64,000 nucleotides of DNA from IMG/VR virus record IMGVR_UViG_3300023053_000001, positions 128,001-192,000 of that record; one strand, given 5' to 3'. The notes beneath the pieces are model-generated. The model made no database searches. It was not told where the DNA came from and saw only the letters and a program-made list of their open reading frames with translations. The position numbers were made by a program, and so were the translations under genes. Source of the stretch: a virus (taxonomy: Duplodnaviria; Caudoviricetes). Below are positions 55,701 to 64,000 of the stretch, piece by piece (positions within the stretch are counted from its first letter, which is position 1; every line of letters starts with the position of its first letter).

Positions 55701-57170
55701 GCGGTGTGGCAGGCGATCCAGCAAGACGGTGCCGTCAAGCTGGTGGAAGAGTCCAATCCGATCCACAACCTGAAAGAGAAGGAAGAAATCACCTTCTCCG
55801 GTACCGGTGGTCGTTCGGGTCGTTCGATGGTTGCACGTACCCGACAGTTCCACAAGTCGGATCTGGGTGTGATCTCCGAGGCGACCAAGGACTCCAGTGA
55901 CGTGGCAATCACCACGTTCATGACGGCCAACCCGAACCTGGTGGATCTGTACGGCAACACCCGTCCGTATGATCCCAAGACCGACGGTCCGGCCAGCCTG
56001 ATGTCCACCACCTCGCTGTTCTCGCCCTGCATCGATCGTGACGATGGCAAGCGTGTGAACTTCGCCTCGATTCAGCATTCGTCGGGTACCTTCGCCAAGG
56101 GCTACGGCCCGATGCCGCTGCGTACCGGTTACGACCAGATCATCGCTCATCGTACCGATGACCTGTTTGCCACTACGGCCAAGCAGGACGGTAAGGTGGT
56201 GGCGATCAACAAGAATGCCATCGTGGTGGAAAACGCCGATGGGTCGCGCAAGGCGGTCCAGTTGGGTCGTCGCTTCGGCACGGCTGCTGGCTCGACCTTC
56301 CCGCATGAACTGACCACCACCCTCAAGGTCGGTGACAAGGTTCGTGCAGGCGATGCCATTGCCTACAACTCGCGCTACTTCGCTCCGGACCCGCTCAACC
56401 CGCGTCAGGTACTGATGCACGGTGGTGTGATGGTTCGCGTGGCGATCATGGACACGGCTGACACGCTGGAAGACTCCTCGGTGATCTCGCAGGAAACTGC
56501 AGACCTGCTGGAGACGGAAATCACCAAGCCGCGCGACATCGTGGTCAAGTTCTCCGATGCTGTCCACCACGTGGTCGGAGTCGGTGATGAGGTCGATGCC
56601 GAGAGCATCCTATGTACCATCGAGGACGCCGTTTCGGCGGATAGTAACCTCTTTGGCGATGACTCCATCGACGTGCTGCGCCAGATCGCTGCCAACAACC
56701 CCAAGGCTAAGTTCAAGGGGAAGGTGGAAGGGGTCGAGGTGTTCTACCATGGCGACATCGAAGATCTGTCTCCGAGCCTGCAGGAATTGGCTATCGAGTC
56801 TGATCGTGATCGACGTCGTCTGGCACGCGACCTCAGTGAGAAGTACACCAGCGGTAGCGCCAATGAAGGCATGCGCGTTGACGGTAATCCGTTGGCGTAT
56901 CAGCATGCAGTCATTCGCGTCTACATCACCGGAAAGGTTCCGGCCGGTGTGGGCGACAAGGGCGTGTACTGCAATCAGCTGAAGACGATCTTCGGCCGAG
57001 TGATGACCGGTGTGAACACCTCCGAAGATGGCCAGCCCATCGGCGGACTGTTCGGCTACCAGTCGATCTCGGCTCGTATTGTCAACAGCGCTGAGCTGAT
57101 GCTGACGACCAACGCGTTCTTGTATCACGCTTCGCAGCTGGTGGCTGACGCGTACTTCGGTGACAAGTGA
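52761..57170 (+). CDS. rpoB: Virion RNA polymerase beta subunit, large N-terminal part (phiKZ gp178-like)
   Basis: DDGKRVNFASIQ, PLRTGY, LEDSSVIS, and GDKGVYCNQLKT motifs equivalent to RpoB conserved regions. Confidence 0.88.
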   Translation: MQPVSNSTLLMESMEACGVYFSDNPLSMEGTILYPQYYRHNGLRRAVQMVAPTLRPVDRLELPRDAVLHAMAEDESQYGISQDDPILAGETRMMSVEHIVKLAGDKGPPRPTARPVSNMTRDYRQRNRRIRQLPNIDAALRDPASLLIENYGLLPHLYRYTQTFFASYNKWWNIQATVWHTAAAVAEKSNRHQFMVCHLPTRLPTLTQLNKAETVLSRAALAAFSEPSALFILEMWKWFGAHREGSLIGQLSQEQLNKINLVWIESGQWFVMNLGMVNQWRKGDDAPDASVNPQQMQRRFLRLLMFLQEARTTSTDVEMTAPSEGTVVAPAPTPTGNPDKPLANTQTVQSEPVKIKIEKTENSAARTITLKPGMNIDVLPDHPIEETQANIQAIDDAITRDLEAMERLMAEMDERTAVTDDSVHEIEEREVPVASEVEEQIVYRPEERTLEQAVMDKVDALANKGQVSAPEYRRFLALSSAYKKLPDPYGKQETMEKGAQVHYKDALIQDTITVPDQKTVFDKSMLKSSLLDFDPRYVRDFLPKDIVRMGLNVQNAGVCITGWSVEDVEDAMGHYEVHSIQVTPVRGKPSTWNLRIPKVREDGTFKSNGVRYLMRKQRTDKPIRKISPSEVSLTSYYSKTNVKRSEKKVHNYTQWLTDQIAARGMDENDQSVTNIVLGDVFNTYDEPPRIYSVLAQRFRSFRLNDIDFMFDYRARAEHFGAERVADAEKGGMTVMGVREKNLIVVDRSDTLYEVSGDLITELGRFEGLAGLRGKQPMEMTEVKISNKDLPVGIVLAYLIGLEPLMALLKLTPRRIPAGERLSLSDDDFALRFEDVALVFPRDNKLASMVLSGFMPFENSLRNYPAHLFDKKDIYLPILEANHIGLRYLREMDLMNELFVDPITKMLLEQMGEPTTLVGLLVRSCELLLTDWAPAETDMNYMRSRGYERVAGVIYAEMVRSIRQHRAKGQQGNSKLEMPPYAVWQAIQQDGAVKLVEESNPIHNLKEKEEITFSGTGGRSGRSMVARTRQFHKSDLGVISEATKDSSDVAITTFMTANPNLVDLYGNTRPYDPKTDGPASLMSTTSLFSPCIDRDDGKRVNFASIQHSSGTFAKGYGPMPLRTGYDQIIAHRTDDLFATTAKQDGKVVAINKNAIVVENADGSRKAVQLGRRFGTAAGSTFPHELTTTLKVGDKVRAGDAIAYNSRYFAPDPLNPRQVLMHGGVMVRVAIMDTADTLEDSSVISQETADLLETEITKPRDIVVKFSDAVHHVVGVGDEVDAESILCTIEDAVSADSNLFGDDSIDVLRQIAANNPKAKFKGKVEGVEVFYHGDIEDLSPSLQELAIESDRDRRRLARDLSEKYTSGSANEGMRVDGNPLAYQHAVIRVYITGKVPAGVGDKGVYCNQLKTIFGRVMTGVNTSEDGQPIGGLFGYQSISARIVNSAELMLTTNAFLYHASQLVADAYFGDK

Positions 57171-57180
57171 ACCTAGGTGC

Positions 57181-57214
57181 GGGGGCGCATTCGTGCGCCC
57201 CCAATCCTTTTATG
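57181..57214 (+). terminator. Hairpin with TTCG loop after the beta gene, followed by TTTTATG
   Basis: GGGGGCGCA-TTCG-TGCGCCCCC. Confidence 0.6.
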
Positions 57215-57334
57215 CGGAGGCATCTGAATAGACAGCGCCTCACGTTGTGCATTGAGATGCTTCGAAATGTGCAAAAAAATATGAGTGACGGGCGCTTGCT
57301 CGTTAACCATTCCTCCAGCCCAAGGGAAACCCCA

Positions 57335-57544
57335 ATGAGCCTTCAGCAAAACACTCCGGCCAACAAGGAAGCCTCGCAGGCCAACTTGGTCGCCCTGGCC
57401 AATCTGGTGGAAATGACCCGCCAGACCATCCAAGCCGTTTCCGGCGACACCATGCCGGCACTGCCGGCCGGCGCCGACACCAACTCGCAGGTCTGCGATC
57501 TGATCGCTGCCACTGCGTCCAAGCACTTCGTGACCGGAGCCTGA
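57335..57544 (+). CDS. Small hypothetical protein (69 aa)
   Basis: AAGGGA RBS, strong codon bias, stop just before the next gene. Confidence 0.65.
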   Translation: MSLQQNTPANKEASQANLVALANLVEMTRQTIQAVSGDTMPALPAGADTNSQVCDLIAATASKHFVTGA

Positions 57545-57548
57545 AGCC

Positions 57549-58976
57549 ATGTTGACCCAAACCTCCATCAACGCGGCTGCGCCGCTGGCTGCGCTGCTGG
57601 CCGATAAGGGCATTGCCCTCATTCCCAAGGCCGGTACCCCGCTGGCTGCGCTGGTGATGTCCAGCCGTTACATGCTCGATGTGGGCGTGGCAATGGAAAG
57701 CCTGCCGGACCCGGCCGGTCAGACCATGACCGAATACGCCGCCGCCCTGCAGGCCTCTTCGGCCGAACCCCACGCCGACGGCGCGCAGGAACACGACATC
57801 CTGATGGAAACGGTCGTGAACAACCTGCGTACGGCGGTGAGCTTCACCCAGAATCTGGCACGCAACACCATCACCCCGATGGTGGACACCGTGGTCAAGG
57901 ATCTGGAAGGCTCGCTGGACAGCGCTGCGGCCACCGGCCTGCACCCGCTGAACATCGTCAGCCGCGACTACAGCAACTTCGCCCATCCGGCCATCGTGCA
58001 GGATCTGGCAGGCCAGTACGGTGAGATCCTCGCCGACCAGCTGCCGCTGACCCTGCGCATCCCGATGCCGGCCAACATCGCCGACTACCTGCTCACCGGT
58101 CAAGACGGTATCGACGGTGCCGTGGCTTCCTACGTGGAGTCCATCGGCGCTGAAGGCGTCAAGAGCCTGTGGGATCGCCTGTTCGGCGGTGAAGCCTCGA
58201 TCCTGACCCAGGTGGCCAACGAGCACAAGCCGGAAACCTACGGCGATGCCGCGCTGGCAATGATCATCGTGCGCAACCTGCAGCAGAACGCACCGGCTGG
58301 TCTGAACATGCCGCTGGAAGACCTCAACAGCTACCTGCTCACCATGCAGCAGCAGCTGGGTCGCATCCTGTTCAACATCCCCAAGCAGATCGACGCCGAT
58401 GTGGCCTCTGGCCGTCTGGTCATCCGCGCCCCGCGTGGTGTGGACGGTCGCGGTGACGTCATCGTCAACGGTCCGCTGTACCAGCAGTACCTGAGCAAGG
58501 GCGGCACGCCCGAAGCCATCTTCGGCGCGCTCAGCGACGGCAATGCGCCGGGTCTGGCTGAACTGCTGGAAAAGCAGGACACCTACACCCGTAGCTGGGG
58601 CCGTGCCAAGGAACAGCTGGTCAACCAGGAAGTGGAAGGTCGCTTCGGTACCATGAAGGGTGCCATCTCCCGCGCCGTGGGCCGCCTGATCGCCGAACTG
58701 CCCGAAGACCAGCTGGTCACCTCGCGCGAAGTGCTGCATCAGCGCCTGACCGAACAGCTCGAGGCCCTGCGTGGTCCGGACATGGAAGATCGCTACGGCA
58801 TGGTCCGTCGCGTGATCTGCCGTGCCGTGTTCCCGCACACCCAGGCTGAAGAACTGCTGTGCCTGATCGATGCCTCGGCCAAGGCCGATGGTGACGTCAG
58901 TGAAGCCGTGCTGACTGCGACCACCAACTACATCGTTGCCTGGGGCGCATCCCAGTTCGATCGCGTCTCGGTGTAA
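57549..58976 (+). CDS. phiKZ-like conserved protein (gp177 position; head morphogenesis cluster)
   Basis: Synteny between the beta gene and the protease; strong codon bias. Confidence 0.7.
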   Translation: MLTQTSINAAAPLAALLADKGIALIPKAGTPLAALVMSSRYMLDVGVAMESLPDPAGQTMTEYAAALQASSAEPHADGAQEHDILMETVVNNLRTAVSFTQNLARNTITPMVDTVVKDLEGSLDSAAATGLHPLNIVSRDYSNFAHPAIVQDLAGQYGEILADQLPLTLRIPMPANIADYLLTGQDGIDGAVASYVESIGAEGVKSLWDRLFGGEASILTQVANEHKPETYGDAALAMIIVRNLQQNAPAGLNMPLEDLNSYLLTMQQQLGRILFNIPKQIDADVASGRLVIRAPRGVDGRGDVIVNGPLYQQYLSKGGTPEAIFGALSDGNAPGLAELLEKQDTYTRSWGRAKEQLVNQEVEGRFGTMKGAISRAVGRLIAELPEDQLVTSREVLHQRLTEQLEALRGPDMEDRYGMVRRVICRAVFPHTQAEELLCLIDASAKADGDVSEAVLTATTNYIVAWGASQFDRVSV

Positions 58977-58982
58977 TCGCCC

Positions 58983-59708
58983 ATGGACCCGAAGAAGCTG
59001 ATTCGCGATCCTGTGAAGGTGCGTGCAGCGACCAAGGTCATGCCTGACAAGAGCGTAATGGCTCTGCGACAAGTCAAGATCTATATCCCGAAGCGATACG
59101 AAGAGAAGCAGCTTGCATTCATCGGTAGTGAGACGTACATCCTGGGCATTTACGCCATGGTGGTGGACGACACTCACTACGCGGTGAGCAAGATCAATGC
59201 GATGATGCGCATCTGCCCCTCCACGGTCAACACGGTGAAGATCGATCAGGACTCGTACTTGGAGTTTGTCTTTGACCCCGGATCGGTGGTGATTGCCACC
59301 ACCGATCTGAAGGTCTCAGATACGCTGGTCTACTCGATCTTTGATGAGTTCCAATCCAAGGGCAATGTGCCTTGGTACATCAACTACGATGACCGCACCC
59401 GACTGTTTGAGTCGGCTGACAAGCACGCTGGCGTCAGGCTGGCGGACAAGCACGCCATCTTGGCCATGGCCACCGCGGCCACTGAACGTGTTCGCGATGA
59501 CCGTACCAAGTTCTTCCGTCAGGCTGTAATGACGGAAGAAGACAAGCTGAGTATCGCCTCGGTCAACATCGCACTGCGCAGTATCACCCACGGTACGACC
59601 AACACCACGTCCAAGTTGGTGGGTTCGTACTGGAAGGATGGTCTGAACGCAGCGCTGGTGAATCCCTCGACCGAGACCGAGAAGATGGAAGAACTGTTGC
59701 GTCGCTAA
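58983..59708 (+). CDS. phiKZ-like conserved protein (gp176 position)
   Basis: Synteny directly upstream of the protease. Confidence 0.7.
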   Translation: MDPKKLIRDPVKVRAATKVMPDKSVMALRQVKIYIPKRYEEKQLAFIGSETYILGIYAMVVDDTHYAVSKINAMMRICPSTVNTVKIDQDSYLEFVFDPGSVVIATTDLKVSDTLVYSIFDEFQSKGNVPWYINYDDRTRLFESADKHAGVRLADKHAILAMATAATERVRDDRTKFFRQAVMTEEDKLSIASVNIALRSITHGTTNTTSKLVGSYWKDGLNAALVNPSTETEKMEELLRR

Positions 59709-59720
59709 AAGGCAAGGACA

Positions 59721-60521
59721 ATGAACGGCACTCGTATTGCTTCATATTCCAGCACGGCGCTGGCGGGTACCGGCAAGACCGGTATCCTCAAGCCCGATGC
59801 GAATAATTATTGGACCATGGTGGTTGGTGGTCTGAATGTTGAGAACAGCGTTGGTGACTTTTACCGTTACGAGCCGGCCAAACATCTGTTCGATGCGGAT
59901 TCTGCATTCCAGCGCCGAATCCGTGATGGTGCCCTGTACGGCGAATGCGGTCATCCCAAGATGCGTCCGGGTGAAAGCACCCGCGATTACATCGCCCGAT
60001 GCATGCAGGTGACCGAAGAGAACGTGGCTTGCCACTTCCGCCGGATCTACCTCGAACACGGTACGGTGCGTGATAAGCAGGGCCGTCCGGTCATTGCCAT
60101 CATGGCCGAACTGACCCCAGCCGGTCCGCACATGGCCGCGCTGCAGCGTGCACTGGAGAACCAGGATCAGAACGTGGCGTTCTCGATCCGTTCGTTCACC
60201 GAGAACACCGTCCAAGGCGGTCGCACGCTGAAGGATCTGAAAACCATCATCACCTTCGACTGGGTGCTCGAACCGGGCATCTCGGTAGCGAAGAAGTGGT
60301 TCGCGCCGGGTCTGGAGTCGTTCGGCTCCACCGACGTGGTACCGCCGATGCTGGAAGAGATCCGTCGCCAGCAGATGCAAATGCAGATGGCTGCAGGCTT
60401 TGAATCTGACACCCGCATGGTCGATGAAGTGACCTGTGCGCTGGGTTGGAAGATGAGCAGCGAAGGTCTGATGATCCCCGATCGTCAGCCGGTGGTTCGC
60501 CCGCCGTCGGCACGTTGGTAA
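59721..60521 (+). CDS. Prohead maturation protease (phiKZ gp175 / T4 gp21-like)
   Basis: ALYGECGHP (His), AFSIRS (Ser), ITFDWVLEPG (Asp) motifs. Confidence 0.88.
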   Translation: MNGTRIASYSSTALAGTGKTGILKPDANNYWTMVVGGLNVENSVGDFYRYEPAKHLFDADSAFQRRIRDGALYGECGHPKMRPGESTRDYIARCMQVTEENVACHFRRIYLEHGTVRDKQGRPVIAIMAELTPAGPHMAALQRALENQDQNVAFSIRSFTENTVQGGRTLKDLKTIITFDWVLEPGISVAKKWFAPGLESFGSTDVVPPMLEEIRRQQMQMQMAAGFESDTRMVDEVTCALGWKMSSEGLMIPDRQPVVRPPSARW

Positions 60522-60523
60522 GG

Positions 60524-60559
60524 CATACCGCCCCTCCCTTCACGGGGAGGGGTTTTATG
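60524..60559. terminator. CATA-stem-loop-TATG element 7
   Basis: CATACCGCCCCTCCC..GGGGAGGGGTTTTATG. Confidence 0.6.
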
Positions 60560-60598
60560 CCCATCGTATGTCTGTTCCATCCTACAACAAAGCCCATC

Positions 60599-61348
60599 AT
60601 GGACACCACTCCTGACACTTCGCTCCTTGAGAACTTCTTTTCTCTGCATGCACCGGATCTGCGTAAGAAGGTGCGTATCGTAACGCCGGCGATCCTGGGT
60701 CAGGAGCATTTGCTGCACATCAGCAAGGATGCCAACATCAAGGTGTTCACGCCCAATGTCACTCGCCGGGCGGCGCACAAAGAGGATCGCTCCGTGGCCC
60801 GTGTGTGCGTGGCCCCATCACTGGTGGCCTGCATGTACGGCTACTCGAGCATCCTGTGGGAATACGGTAACGATCTGAACCAGTCCTACTACTCAGGCGA
60901 TAAAACCGTCAAGTGGAATGGTGGCTGGACGATCTACGGCATTCCCTACAAGGTCGCCCTGTTCCCCAGCGAGCAGTTGGTGCCCCGTGGCCCGGACTCG
61001 GATGAACACTGGTTGGTCACCACCGACAAAGACACCTCGCATTTCAAGCCGGTGGTCTTTGGCGAGTTCTATCTGGAATCCTCCGTGCAGGTCCATGTGC
61101 GTGGTAAGAAGCAAACCACCGTGGAGATCTGGGTGAAGGTCACCCATCCCGATGGTCTGTTCCTGGACAAGCAGCATCACATCGCACCGGGCTGCTGGGT
61201 AGCGCGCGTTCGTGACTTTGACACCGCCAATGGCGTGGCTGGTCGCAACACGCTGGATTTGACCCAGATCAGTGAGAAGGAATACACCACTCGCCGTCAG
61301 CTTTCCCTCTCGGCTGAGTCGCGTCGACCCATCTCCGCCACATGGTGA
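60599..61348 (+). CDS. Hypothetical, possibly head-packaged protein
   Basis: Ends LSLSAESRRPISATW, similar to the protease end RPPSARW. Confidence 0.7.
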   Translation: MDTTPDTSLLENFFSLHAPDLRKKVRIVTPAILGQEHLLHISKDANIKVFTPNVTRRAAHKEDRSVARVCVAPSLVACMYGYSSILWEYGNDLNQSYYSGDKTVKWNGGWTIYGIPYKVALFPSEQLVPRGPDSDEHWLVTTDKDTSHFKPVVFGEFYLESSVQVHVRGKKQTTVEIWVKVTHPDGLFLDKQHHIAPGCWVARVRDFDTANGVAGRNTLDLTQISEKEYTTRRQLSLSAESRRPISATW

Positions 61349-61389
61349 CATAGCTCCTGCTCCCCTCACCGGGAGCAGGAGTTGTTATG
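61349..61389. terminator. CATA-stem-loop-TATG element 8
   Basis: CATAGCTCCTGCTCCC-CTCACC-GGGAGCAGGAGTTGTTATG. Confidence 0.65.
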
Positions 61390-61448
61390 CCGTTGGTAAT
61401 TTTTTCATCCACATATTACTCGTATGTACCCTCTAACGAGACACTGAC

Positions 61449-62837
61449 GTGATTGCTCACCTTGAAGCAACTGCCGCACAATTCATGGCGTTCACCAAAG
61501 AACACCCCGCAGTAGGCTTCGCCGTCTCGGCATGGGGTCTGGCGGTGCTGAGCTGGGCGCTGCGCGATATTCCCACGAAGGTGTTTGGATGGATCAAGCA
61601 CCAGAGCACCACGTATCTGGAAATCCACAACGAGAGTGTGGGTACCAACCAGCAGTCCTTCGACAACTTCTGCACGTGGCTGTTTGCCCAGCCCAGTGCG
61701 CGCTTCTCGCGCAGCCTGATGATGAATGGCGGCTGGCGTAACGAACAGCGCCGTAACGGCATGCGGGTGTACAGCAGCTGCACCTACGTTGGTCCCGGTG
61801 ACGGCACGCACTTCTTCTTCGTGGGCCGGCGGTTGTTCTGGGCCAAGGTGACCTCCATCCGTGAGGGTGCAATCAACGAGATCAAGCGCAGCATCATCGT
61901 CACCACCTTCGGTCGTAAACATGCACCGCTGCGTGAACTGGTGGACATGATCAGCTACAAGCCCGATCCGGAACGCATCATGCGTCACACCTACAGCAGT
62001 GAAGGCTGGCAGCACAACGGTGCCATTGCACGTCGTCCCATGTCCACGGTCCTGCTCAACAACGGACTGGCCGATGAAATCCTCGAGCGCATCCGTGAGT
62101 TCGAAGGCAGTCGGCAGTGGTATGAGGAACGCGGCATCTCCTACAAGCTGTCCTTGCTGTTCCATGGGCCGACCGGTACGGGTAAGACCAGTCTGGCCCG
62201 AGCGCTGGCTGGATTGCTGAACCGTTCCATCTACCAGTTCAATCTGGCCCTGATGACGGACACTTCGCTGGAGAAGGCAGTCTCTTCCATTCCCAGCGAT
62301 TCGATCCTGCTGGTGGAAGACTTCGATTCGGCCTCGGCCCTGCGTGCGCGCAAGAATATCCACAAGGGCGCCAAGTCCAAGAAGGCTCGCCCGGTCGCTG
62401 ATGCGCCTGTCGCGCCGTATGACTCTGAACAGCTCACTCCTGCGCCGCAGAGCGATCAGGGTATCGGCCAATCGCTGGCTGACCTGATGAGCCCCCTGAC
62501 GCTGTCCGGTGTCCTCAACAGCTTTGACGGCGTGGCCGGTCTGGATGGTTGCATCATCATCTTCTCGACCAATGCCATAGCCGACATCGATGAGACCATG
62601 CTGCGGCCGGGTCGTATCGATGAGAAGTACCTGATCGACCATCTCAACCATGAGTCGATCGTCAGCTACATCCAGCGCTTTGCGCCTGATGTTGCCATCC
62701 CTGCCGGAGAGTTCGATTCCATCTCCGGCGCCCAGCTGCAAGCGATCTTGTTGCGCAACCTGCGTAACTTGGATCAGTTCGTAGCTGAAATCCCGATGCT
62801 GTACCCACAATTGACTCAGGAGAAGAACGCAGCATGA
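61449..62837 (+). CDS. BCS1-like membrane-anchored AAA+ ATPase
   Basis: N-terminal TM, a BCS1_N-like region, then WYEERGISYKLSLLFHGPTGTGKTS (Walker A), LLVEDFD (Walker B), LSGVLNSFDG, FSTN, LRPGRID (second region of homology). Confidence 0.82.
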   Translation: MIAHLEATAAQFMAFTKEHPAVGFAVSAWGLAVLSWALRDIPTKVFGWIKHQSTTYLEIHNESVGTNQQSFDNFCTWLFAQPSARFSRSLMMNGGWRNEQRRNGMRVYSSCTYVGPGDGTHFFFVGRRLFWAKVTSIREGAINEIKRSIIVTTFGRKHAPLRELVDMISYKPDPERIMRHTYSSEGWQHNGAIARRPMSTVLLNNGLADEILERIREFEGSRQWYEERGISYKLSLLFHGPTGTGKTSLARALAGLLNRSIYQFNLALMTDTSLEKAVSSIPSDSILLVEDFDSASALRARKNIHKGAKSKKARPVADAPVAPYDSEQLTPAPQSDQGIGQSLADLMSPLTLSGVLNSFDGVAGLDGCIIIFSTNAIADIDETMLRPGRIDEKYLIDHLNHESIVSYIQRFAPDVAIPAGEFDSISGAQLQAILLRNLRNLDQFVAEIPMLYPQLTQEKNAA

Positions 62838-63181
62838 CTCGTACCGAGATTGTCGAGCTGTACATCAAGTACCGCGACCGTGTCCAGAAAGATGCCCACA
62901 CATCCACCTACCTCGGCCAGCTGGACCGTATCGACCGCCTCATCCAGAGCACCTCCGGCAAGCCGGATGTCAAGCTGCGTGACTACGGCCGACTGCTCAA
63001 GACCTACCTGCCGGAACTGACCGGCAAGCTGGGCTTGGTCACTGCCCATGGACACTTCCTCGTTGCCTGCCACCTGTACGACCAGGGCAACGACGTCCAG
63101 ATGGCTCTCAAGCGCGCCCGTACGGTCTACGAGACCAAACTGGCCACTCTGCCCGCTGCCCTGAACGGGTACGCCTCCTGA
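62834..63181 (+). CDS. Hypothetical protein
   Basis: ATGA overlap with the AAA+ gene; strong codon bias. Confidence 0.7.
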   Translation: MTRTEIVELYIKYRDRVQKDAHTSTYLGQLDRIDRLIQSTSGKPDVKLRDYGRLLKTYLPELTGKLGLVTAHGHFLVACHLYDQGNDVQMALKRARTVYETKLATLPAALNGYAS

Positions 63182-63194
63182 CGTCATACAAGCG

Positions 63195-63224
63195 CATACA
63201 GGCAGGTTCCCCCTGCCTGTTATG
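63195..63224. terminator. CATA-stem-loop-TATG element 9
   Basis: CATACAGGCAGG-TTCCC-CCTGCCTGTTATG. Confidence 0.6.
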
Positions 63225-63247
63225 CCCACTGCTGAAAAGGTAACGAC

Positions 63248-64000
63248 ATGTCCGACAAAGAAAAGATCAAGCTGCTGCAAGTCCCGGCCTTGGCGCCGAT
63301 CGCAGGTGGGGTCAATGACGAAGATCCCATCATGAACTTCCGCATGTGGTTGCGAGAGGTGGTCAGTGACTGCATCACCCCGCTGGAACTGCATCTGCAG
63401 ACGGTCGTGATCGATCCGGCTAACGATAGTCCGGAATACATCCAGGCCATCAGTGCAGCGCAGAATTTCATTACGGTCATCAAGACCGAAATGAAGGAAA
63501 TCGCCACCATCCAAAACAAGGCCATGTTCGCCGAAGCCTACAAGGACTTCCTGCAGGTGATCAACACGTACCGTGGGTCGGTCGAACAGGCTACTCAGAT
63601 CAACTTCGAGATCGTCGGGTTCAGCCCGGAGATTTACAACGTCAACGAAGTGCTCAACATCGCAGAGTACCATGGCAAGTTTGTCAAAGAACTGGATACC
63701 ATCTATCAGTCGGCGATAAGCCTGACCCATCAGTACGACGCCCGACTCCATCGCCATTTCTTCATTCTGGCCGATCTGGTGCGCTTCATCGCCACTCAGT
63801 TGATTCGAGCGCGCACGTCCAACAGCTACAAGCAGCTGCGACGCATCCGTCACGAGATCGACGGCGAACTGGCTGGCTTCCAGTATCAGTTGCGCGAGAT
63901 CGAATCCCCGCGCATGCCCGACGAAGATCAGACCGGCAAGATCCCGCCCGCGGTACTGGGCGTGGACTTTGCGCGCGGCTGGGTAATGCGTGAACTGCAG
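63248..64000 (+). CDS. Hypothetical protein, truncated by the window end
   Basis: ATG at 63248 after AAAGGT; my translation (MSDKEKIKLLQVP...) stays open to base 64000; absent from the ORF track. Confidence 0.75.
   Translation, partial: MSDKEKIKLLQVPALAPIAGGVNDEDPIMNFRMWLREVVSDCITPLELHLQTVVIDPANDSPEYIQAISAAQNFITVIKTEMKEIATIQNKAMFAEAYKDFLQVINTYRGSVEQATQINFEIVGFSPEIYNVNEVLNIAEYHGKFVKELDTIYQSAISLTHQYDARLHRHFFILADLVRFIATQLIRARTSNSYKQLRRIRHEIDGELAGFQYQLREIESPRMPDEDQTGKIPPAVLGVDFARGWVMRELQ

Follow-up and report, generated by a model that had tools for sequence, protein, structure and literature searches.

A gene at positions 61449–62837 (+ strand) of a 64,000-nucleotide stretch of viral DNA, hereafter the window, is assigned by its sequence and predicted structure to the Bcs1 family of AAA+ ATPases. 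The window, i.e., the whole stretch analyzed, covers bases 128001–192000 of a complete virus record of 268,458 bp with terminal repeats and a G+C content of 58% (IMGVR_UViG_3300023053_000001). The gene has a GTG start and a predicted product of 462 amino acids, which appears as a full-length member of the phage branch of the family, the branch that includes gp286 of phage phiKZ (PHROG 7485). Its stop codon overlaps (ATGA) the start of a second gene (62834–63181, + strand), predicted to encode a basic helical-bundle protein of 115 amino acids with an isoelectric point of 9.4. Judging from the sequence and from the analogy with mitochondrial Bcs1, the ATPase probably forms a ring at the inner membrane of the host, on its cytoplasmic side, where it would remodel or move a folded client; the 115-amino-acid protein may be a lineage-specific accessory or only a neighbor.

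The assignment was based on the open reading frame and on matches in the Pfam, PHROG and PDB databases, and the GTG start is supported by several homologues that begin at the same alignment column. The Pfam search identified the Bcs1-specific N-terminal/middle domain BCS1_N (PF08740) at residues 32–201 (61542–62051, + strand) with 50.6 bits against a cut-off of 28.1, covering profile positions 2–182 of 182, and the same search repeated on the genome gave 53.3 bits. An AAA domain (PF00004) was matched with an expectation value (E) of 8.4e-13, and the predicted model has a beta-rich domain at residues 54–194. Comparison of the single protein with PDB by phmmer placed mouse and yeast Bcs1 first (E 1.5e-32), followed by the next AAA proteins at 1e-13. 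With a family profile, Bcs1 was again the top match over positions 8–418, from the membrane helix to the lid; the profile includes two eukaryotic members and its E of 7e-100 is therefore less fair a figure than the single-sequence value. The match to PHROG 7485 (E 2.7e-107) aligned residues 4–449 with profile positions 4–413 of 430, and searches of PADLOC and NCBIfam returned only generic AAA matches, far below curated cut-offs where such exist.

The structural comparison was in accordance with these results. An AlphaFold model built from 24 homologues had a mean predicted local distance difference test score (pLDDT) of 81, and in a Foldseek search against PDB the ranks 1–17 were all Bcs1 chains (E 2e-29; template modeling scores of 0.63/0.69 to the ATP state), with a score of 0.80 by target for the AAA domain alone. 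An initial annotation, made from the sequence alone, had proposed a BCS1 organization for this gene. That proposal is borne out by a BCS1_N score above cut-off, by Bcs1 as the top match in both sequence and fold, and by the presence of all the motifs it quoted; an absence of BCS1_N similarity is excluded by the Pfam score as well as by the PDB sequence and fold matches.

A single AAA module spans about residues 224–447 (62118–62789, + strand), as indicated by residues invariant in 24 homologues. It contains WYEERGISY (224–232), the Walker A motif GPTGTGKTS (240–248), the Walker B motif LLVEDFD (287–293), LSGVLNSFDG (352–361), the sensor-1 motif FSTN (372–375, with N375) and RPGRID (386–391), which carries the Arg fingers R386 and R389. 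Residues G240, G243, G245, K246, E290, D291, N375, R386 and R389 are invariant across the 24 homologues. Since Walker A, the ED-type Walker B, the sensor-1 Asn and both Arg fingers are thus retained without exception, the sequence indicates that the enzyme is very likely catalytically active. The aromatic-hydrophobic-Gly motif that forms threading pore loop 1 was not found in the stretch after the Walker A helix, a stretch that aligns to Bcs1.

Directly after the Walker B strand, the protein carries a predicted disordered insertion rich in Ala, Lys and Pro (residues 294–347; 62328–62489, + strand) of 54 residues with a net charge of +3, where pLDDT falls below 50 over residues 305–342. Phage relatives have the insertion at variable length and the eukaryotic members of the alignment lack it; the unmatched gap at this place is 45 residues in the window protein versus about 108 codons in phiKZ gp286. 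The site is the pore-loop-2 position of AAA proteins, so that seven copies of this basic disordered segment, a phage-specific addition, would face the central cavity of the ring.

A single membrane-anchor helix is predicted from hydropathy and the Lys/Arg pattern at residues 20–38 (61506–61562, + strand), with an external N-terminus and a cytoplasmic C-terminus. These residues form the hydropathy maximum of the ATPase (Kyte-Doolittle 1.58), with values as high as 2.4 for the corresponding segment of relatives. Nearly all homologues have a hydrophobic segment at the same position, with 3–5 Lys/Arg after it and 0–1 before it. In the profile alignment to yeast Bcs1 (6sh3), residues 20–38 cover the hydrophobic stretch at about residues 45–65, which is presumably the transmembrane helix of the yeast protein. 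The hydropathy and charge pattern of the sequence fits an anchor oriented N-out and C-in, with the ATPase ring in the cytoplasm. The membrane helix claimed in the initial annotation thus stands as a conserved segment of fitting hydropathy and charge, but its insertion is a sequence prediction and the soluble alternative is only disfavored.

In the mechanism proposed by homology with Bcs1, one N-terminal helix would anchor the ATPase in the host inner membrane, leaving a short N-terminus outside and the rest of the protein in the cytoplasm. The middle domain and the single AAA module would assemble into a ring, Bcs1 itself being heptameric. Driven by ATP, this ring would grip or move a folded client at the membrane and would not thread an unfolded chain, a reading that is suggested because the ATPase, like Bcs1, lacks the aromatic pore loop 1.

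The soil phage that carries the gene is, from its gene content, a nucleus-forming, phiKZ-like jumbo phage (chimallivirus), because homologues of phiKZ chimallin (ChmA), of PhuZ and of the beta subunit of the non-virion RNA polymerase are all present in the genome; this context had been anticipated in the initial annotation. When deposited phages were searched at the DNA level with the 2-kb stretch, no match was obtained, and therefore the phage has no close cultured relative. Among 50,697 deposited records of phages, tblastn detected the ATPase family in 163, with less than 60% identity in every case; several of the records annotate it under names such as ‘mitochondrial chaperone BCS1’ or ‘AAA+ ATPase and BCS1 domain protein’. 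The phiKZ orthologue is gp286, about 26% identical to the window protein; gp32 was considered as orthologue and rejected. BCS1 orthologues have been described in all three major jumbo-phage groups, with a proposed role in membrane-proximal assembly (Iyer et al., 2021; PMC7824862). The family also occurs in phages that build no nucleus, namely Caulobacter phages CcrColossus and CcrPW, Brevundimonas phages Bambus and Kabachok, Serratia phage Totoro, Salicola phage SCTP-2, Dinoroseobacter phage R26L and Pectobacterium phage phiTE.

Published data on gp286 bear on the proposed mechanism. In lysates taken 10, 20, and 30 min after infection and then pooled, the protein sediments with material of high molecular weight (PMC10914614), and it elutes with complexes of megadalton size in a preparation that kept membrane complexes such as FtsH-HflKC (PMC10449902). 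Both results support a large assembly. Antisense knock-down of gp286 left plaque and colony counts unchanged and lowered the accumulation of ChmA, and gp286 is not counted among the core genes of Chimalliviridae (PMC12571901).

Several points weigh against a membrane-anchored ring acting on a folded client. In phiKZ, gp286 was cross-linked to L7/L12, L10 and L11 and co-eluted with 70S ribosomes, which points to a cytoplasmic target (PMC10449902). Its function is dispensable in the laboratory, because the knock-down did not reduce plaques, and the gp286 data may themselves not transfer to the window protein at an identity of only about 26%. The anchor hydropathy of the window protein (1.58) is borderline, and it is from homology that we infer membrane insertion, the ring, ATPase activity and the client. 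The genome position of the ATPase varies by lineage: the gene follows the head protease in the window, is close to DNA ligase in phage Noxifer and the locus L015, and lies elsewhere in phiKZ, so that the context gives no consistent functional clue. Taken together, the gp286 data fit a large, laboratory-dispensable assembly and leave an action on ribosomes as a rival explanation.

The region around the two genes is delimited by stable predicted hairpins. Folding and a hairpin scan identified a G+C-rich hairpin upstream (61345–61388, + strand; core stem 61354–61381; -29.1 kcal/mol, z -6.25) without a U-tract, which is likely a transcript boundary, and folding placed a second hairpin downstream (63194–63225, + strand; core stem 63198–63220; -21.1 kcal/mol, z -6.61), whose lower stem includes TATGCC. 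In both predicted folds the CAUA and UAUG flanks pair together and lengthen the stem. The combination of a hairpin with TATGCC was present at no fewer than eight sites in the window (5592, 17045, 24368, 30911, 40048, 60556, 61386, and 63221), often with a complementary CATA at the left that extends the stem, and at none in shuffled sequences. The element punctuates intergenic regions of this genome in general and does not mark the border of a mobile cassette. The two CATA/TATG hairpins pointed out earlier are thus real and very stable, but the self-contained cassette that they were taken to enclose is unsupported, because the element recurs across the genome. Since the consensus of phiKZ late promoters is a TATG that overlaps the start of transcription (PMC7618050), the hairpin-TATGCC element may combine a transcript end with the next phiKZ-type TATG start. 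A simple terminator scan flagged only the hairpin at 60535, the other two lacking a T-run, and a sigma-70 promoter scan of the region found none.

Between the upstream hairpin and the ATPase start lies a conserved AT-rich element (61386–61426, + strand), which is a candidate promoter or leader. It contains TATGCC at 61386, GTAATTTTTT at 61396–61405, CACATATTACT at 61410–61420 and a second, invariant TATG at 61423–61426, which lies 23 nucleotides before the GTG of the ATPase. The element of about 40 nucleotides is almost invariant in four phages whose ATPases are 48–65% identical, and a looser version is found in the Xanthomonas phage LucasX. The same four phages have four different, perfectly paired stems 5′ of it. 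With nhmmer, the element gave only one strong match in the 268-kb genome. From its sequence it looks like a dedicated promoter or leader, of a timing class that cannot be read from the sequence.

Related sites were also observed. A looser motif, composed of a T-rich stretch followed by CCACA(C/T)AT(T/C)A, is found at four sites (G000:C1 15830, 85841, and 223658, all outside the window, and window 61409), each 25–45 nucleotides 5′ of an ATG, and these sites may represent a small promoter class that includes the ATPase gene. The heptamer ATATTAC was tried as a general early-promoter marker and rejected, with two occurrences in the window versus 1.2 expected and four in the genome, besides three or four loosely similar sites. 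In addition, a frame of 21 codons at 61386–61451 starts at the ATG of TATGCC and ends at a TGA that overlaps the ATPase GTG. In two closer relatives (P0004 and P0005), the ATPase frame runs through these letters, and they are called as an N-terminal extension; this call is probably an artefact of annotation across a conserved non-coding leader, because in the window the same frame is closed by the stop overlapping the GTG.

The ATPase gene and the small gene probably form one transcription unit, since the pair lies between two hairpins of the recurring type and behind its own conserved promoter-like element. This is further supported by the ATGA overlap, by an AGGAG located 11 nucleotides 5′ of the ATG of the small gene, and by the lack of any hairpin between the two genes. 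In this lineage the 115-amino-acid protein would be co-transcribed and probably translationally coupled with the ATPase, without being part of the core machinery of the family.

The AlphaFold model of the small protein (pLDDT 89.6; predicted template modeling score 0.82) showed a five-helix bundle with a short C-terminal helix. Searches of Pfam, PHROG, NCBIfam and PADLOC gave no match, and fold searches (Foldseek against PDB, BFVD, VIA-align, and the Atlas by structure and by features) gave only generic helical-bundle matches, at or below the level common for helical proteins (best VIA-align Z 7.4; Atlas features at most 0.79). The single BFVD match is a protein of 126 amino acids, probably the LucasX homologue. 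A scan of 1.8 billion representative proteins revealed only 12 relatives of similar length. Residues R3, K56, A91, and A95 are invariant in this small family, and a K-R-A-R motif is conserved at positions 93–96.

The small gene was located directly 3′ of the ATPase in seven of ten contexts, mostly with overlapping stop and start codons: the window, the metagenomic loci L010, L011, and L012, LucasX, and two short contigs (L017 and L018). The remaining three (L019, L020, and L102) lack an adjoining ATPase. L019 and L020 keep the gene order around the head protease but have no ATPase at the corresponding place; in L102, the small gene is preceded by an unrelated gene. No homologue of the small protein was found beside ATPase relatives with 35% identity or less (the metagenomic loci L013–L016, Noxifer, and phiKZ) or at any of 80 IMG/VR loci with an ATPase relative; in total, over 200 loci of the ATPase are without the small gene. 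Searches for IMG/VR loci with single ATPase and with small-protein alignments gave nothing usable. The two genes therefore do not co-occur wherever either is found, as an obligate two-gene module would.

The first rival explanation to be weighed is that the 115-amino-acid protein serves the ATPase as its own adaptor, regulator or client and that the two-gene unit is a functional module. The window, L010, L011, L012, LucasX, and L017 all retain the ATGA or a similar overlap, the adjacency persists even where ATPase identity has dropped to 28%, and the two proteins diverge to a similar degree (63, 39, 51, and 33% for the small protein versus 65, 51, 48, and 29% for the ATPase). The three contexts without an adjoining ATPase, two of them with otherwise unchanged gene order, argue against a dedicated partner, as does the lack of a homologue at the 80 IMG/VR ATPase loci and in phiKZ, Noxifer, L013, L014, L015, and L016. 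Moreover, four-base overlaps are common in phages, and the seven paired cases belong to one syntenic lineage and are hence not independent observations. In phiKZ, gp285, an unrelated gene, overlaps the start of gp286 by four nucleotides, and both proteins were in the same fraction, which hints at coupling lineage by lineage; however, no homology to gp285 was detected for the small protein, nor for the gene 5′ of the ATPase in the window. A pattern of lineage-specific genes coupled to the ATPase is possible, and a dedicated partner is conceivable though rather improbable. Because the paired cases all come from one lineage and the other contexts and ATPase loci are unpaired, the small protein is at most a lineage-specific accessory or client, and it may be only a conserved neighbor. 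The coupled small partner of the initial annotation is therefore real as far as the ATGA overlap and the pairing within a lineage are concerned, but not across the three ATPase-free contexts and the 80 loci without the small gene.

It also appears unlikely that the ATPase remodels or chaperones cytoplasmic machinery, notably host ribosomes, with its helix serving for oligomerization or loose membrane tethering. This explanation would account for the co-elution of gp286 with 70S and its cross-links to rplL, rplK, and rplJ (PMC10449902), for its presence in heavy fractions 10–30 min after infection (PMC10914614), and for the lowering of ChmA protein at unchanged plaque counts (PMC12571901). The next-best structural relative of the ATPase, YjoB, is recorded in PDB as a crystal structure, which is a further point in favor of this explanation. 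A large ring, however, would co-elute with ribosomes simply because of its size. Being abundant and flexible, the L7/L12 stalk may cross-link readily. The same preparation retained membrane complexes, and the anchor segment with its charge asymmetry is conserved throughout the phage family, which would be unexpected for a purely soluble protein.

Assistance in membrane-proximal head assembly, by loading or moving folded proteins on their way to the capsid, is a published proposal (Iyer et al., 2021; PMC7824862) that we regard as quite unlikely for this gene. The ATPase gene here comes directly after the head-protease module (PHROG 2926, 3014, and 5043, then the ATPase), and the phiKZ protease gp175 was in the same cross-linked fraction as gp286. 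Yet the gene does not adjoin head genes in phiKZ, Noxifer, L013, L014, L015, or L016, the gp286 knock-down leaves plaques unreduced, and in the window the ATPase has its own promoter-like element and is separated from the head genes by a hairpin.

A more speculative extension is that phage Bcs1-like rings provide Sec- and Tat-independent export of a folded phage protein, with lineage-specific small genes, such as those for the 115-amino-acid protein and gp285, supplying clients or adaptors. Among AAA+ proteins, only Bcs1 is known to transport a protein through a membrane in its folded state. This extension is likewise considered improbable. The translocase, the adaptor and the anti-defense role put forward in the initial annotation are speculative.

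Finally, service to a structure peculiar to nucleus-forming phages, be it the lipid vesicle of early infection or the movement of proteins in connection with the phage nucleus, is very unlikely: the genome and most of the 163 family records are chimalliviruses and the gp286 knock-down lowers ChmA levels, but the family is present in non-chimalliviruses (CcrColossus, Totoro, SCTP-2, R26L, phiTE and others), the gene is non-core for Chimalliviridae (PMC12571901), and the vesicle forms at injection, before phage gene expression, with the ATPase not reported as a virion component in the cited literature. The link to the early infection vesicle that had been suggested from the sequence is not supported, and a vesicle-specific role is weakened because the family occurs in phages without a nucleus.

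The block 5′ of the ATPase (57549–61348) comprises, in order, PHROG 3841 (475 amino acids), the virion structural protein PHROG 2926 (241 amino acids), the head maturation protease PHROG 3014/Peptidase_S80 (266 amino acids) and PHROG 5043 (about 249 amino acids). The order PHROG 3841-2926-3014-5043 is kept in L010–L012 and L019, and L020 and LucasX keep it without PHROG 5043. In Noxifer (L009) and L015, the Bcs1-like gene lies no more than one or two genes away from an NAD-dependent DNA ligase; the genomic position of the family is therefore lineage-specific.

At the protein ends, a C-terminal Ala-Ala is found in nine of the 24 aligned ATPase homologues, including the window protein (62823–62834) and its three closest relatives, and a C-terminal Ala in 14 of the 24; among the small-protein relatives, eight of 13 end in Ala. 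Such endings recall C-terminal degradation tags of ssrA type.

Exact matches to positions 57000–64000 of the window are found in contigs of 21 soil metatranscriptome libraries (2018–2019) and of three DNA runs. The metatranscriptome contigs with the stretch are 3.6 to 49 kb long, and two cover all 7 kb unbroken. The phage was abundant across that soil sample series; since such libraries can contain DNA, the contigs say nothing on transcription, transcript ends or timing.

If the phage version of Bcs1 works as proposed, these phages would bring their own motor for folded-protein export or membrane remodeling, which would bear on the building of large-phage particles at the membrane, on cell lysis and on the evasion of envelope defenses. 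The family has been on record in jumbo phages since at least 2021, and the window copy adds no functional evidence. What the locus adds is a divergent member from a soil phage, a strongly conserved upstream control element, and a small orphan protein family that travels with the ATPase in one lineage, the pair being represented in a cultured relative by genes 13 and 14 of LucasX.

The closest known system is mitochondrial Bcs1/BCS1L (yeast 6sh3 and 9gs2; mouse 6uko and 8tp1), a heptameric AAA translocase of the folded Rieske Fe-S protein. The window protein resembles it in having a predicted N-terminal membrane helix, a middle domain and one AAA module in the same order, in a full-length match of sequence and fold, in the conserved Walker A and B (ED-type Walker B), sensor-1 and Arg fingers, and in the lack of an aromatic pore loop 1. 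It differs from Bcs1 in its identity of about 23–24%, in being phage-encoded, in that it would sit in the bacterial inner membrane, and in carrying a predicted disordered, basic insertion of 54 residues behind Walker B; it has no known client resembling the Rieske protein. With the other PHROG 7485 phage ATPases (phiKZ gp286, PhiPA3 gp347, and CcrColossus) it shares the predicted anchor, the middle domain, the AAA module and the variable insertion, whereas its identity is at most 32% to deposited phage copies and 67% to metagenomic relatives, and, unlike in phiKZ, its gene follows the head protease module and has no gp285 homologue, and 3′ of it lies the small helical gene, which is absent from the other lineages. 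The next structural match after Bcs1 is YjoB of Bacillus subtilis (7w42; E 8e-15), with a sequence E of 7.6e-12 over the pre-AAA and AAA regions. This match is much weaker (14–16% identity), and the phage protein keeps the hydrophobic N-terminal segment and the whole BCS1_N profile.

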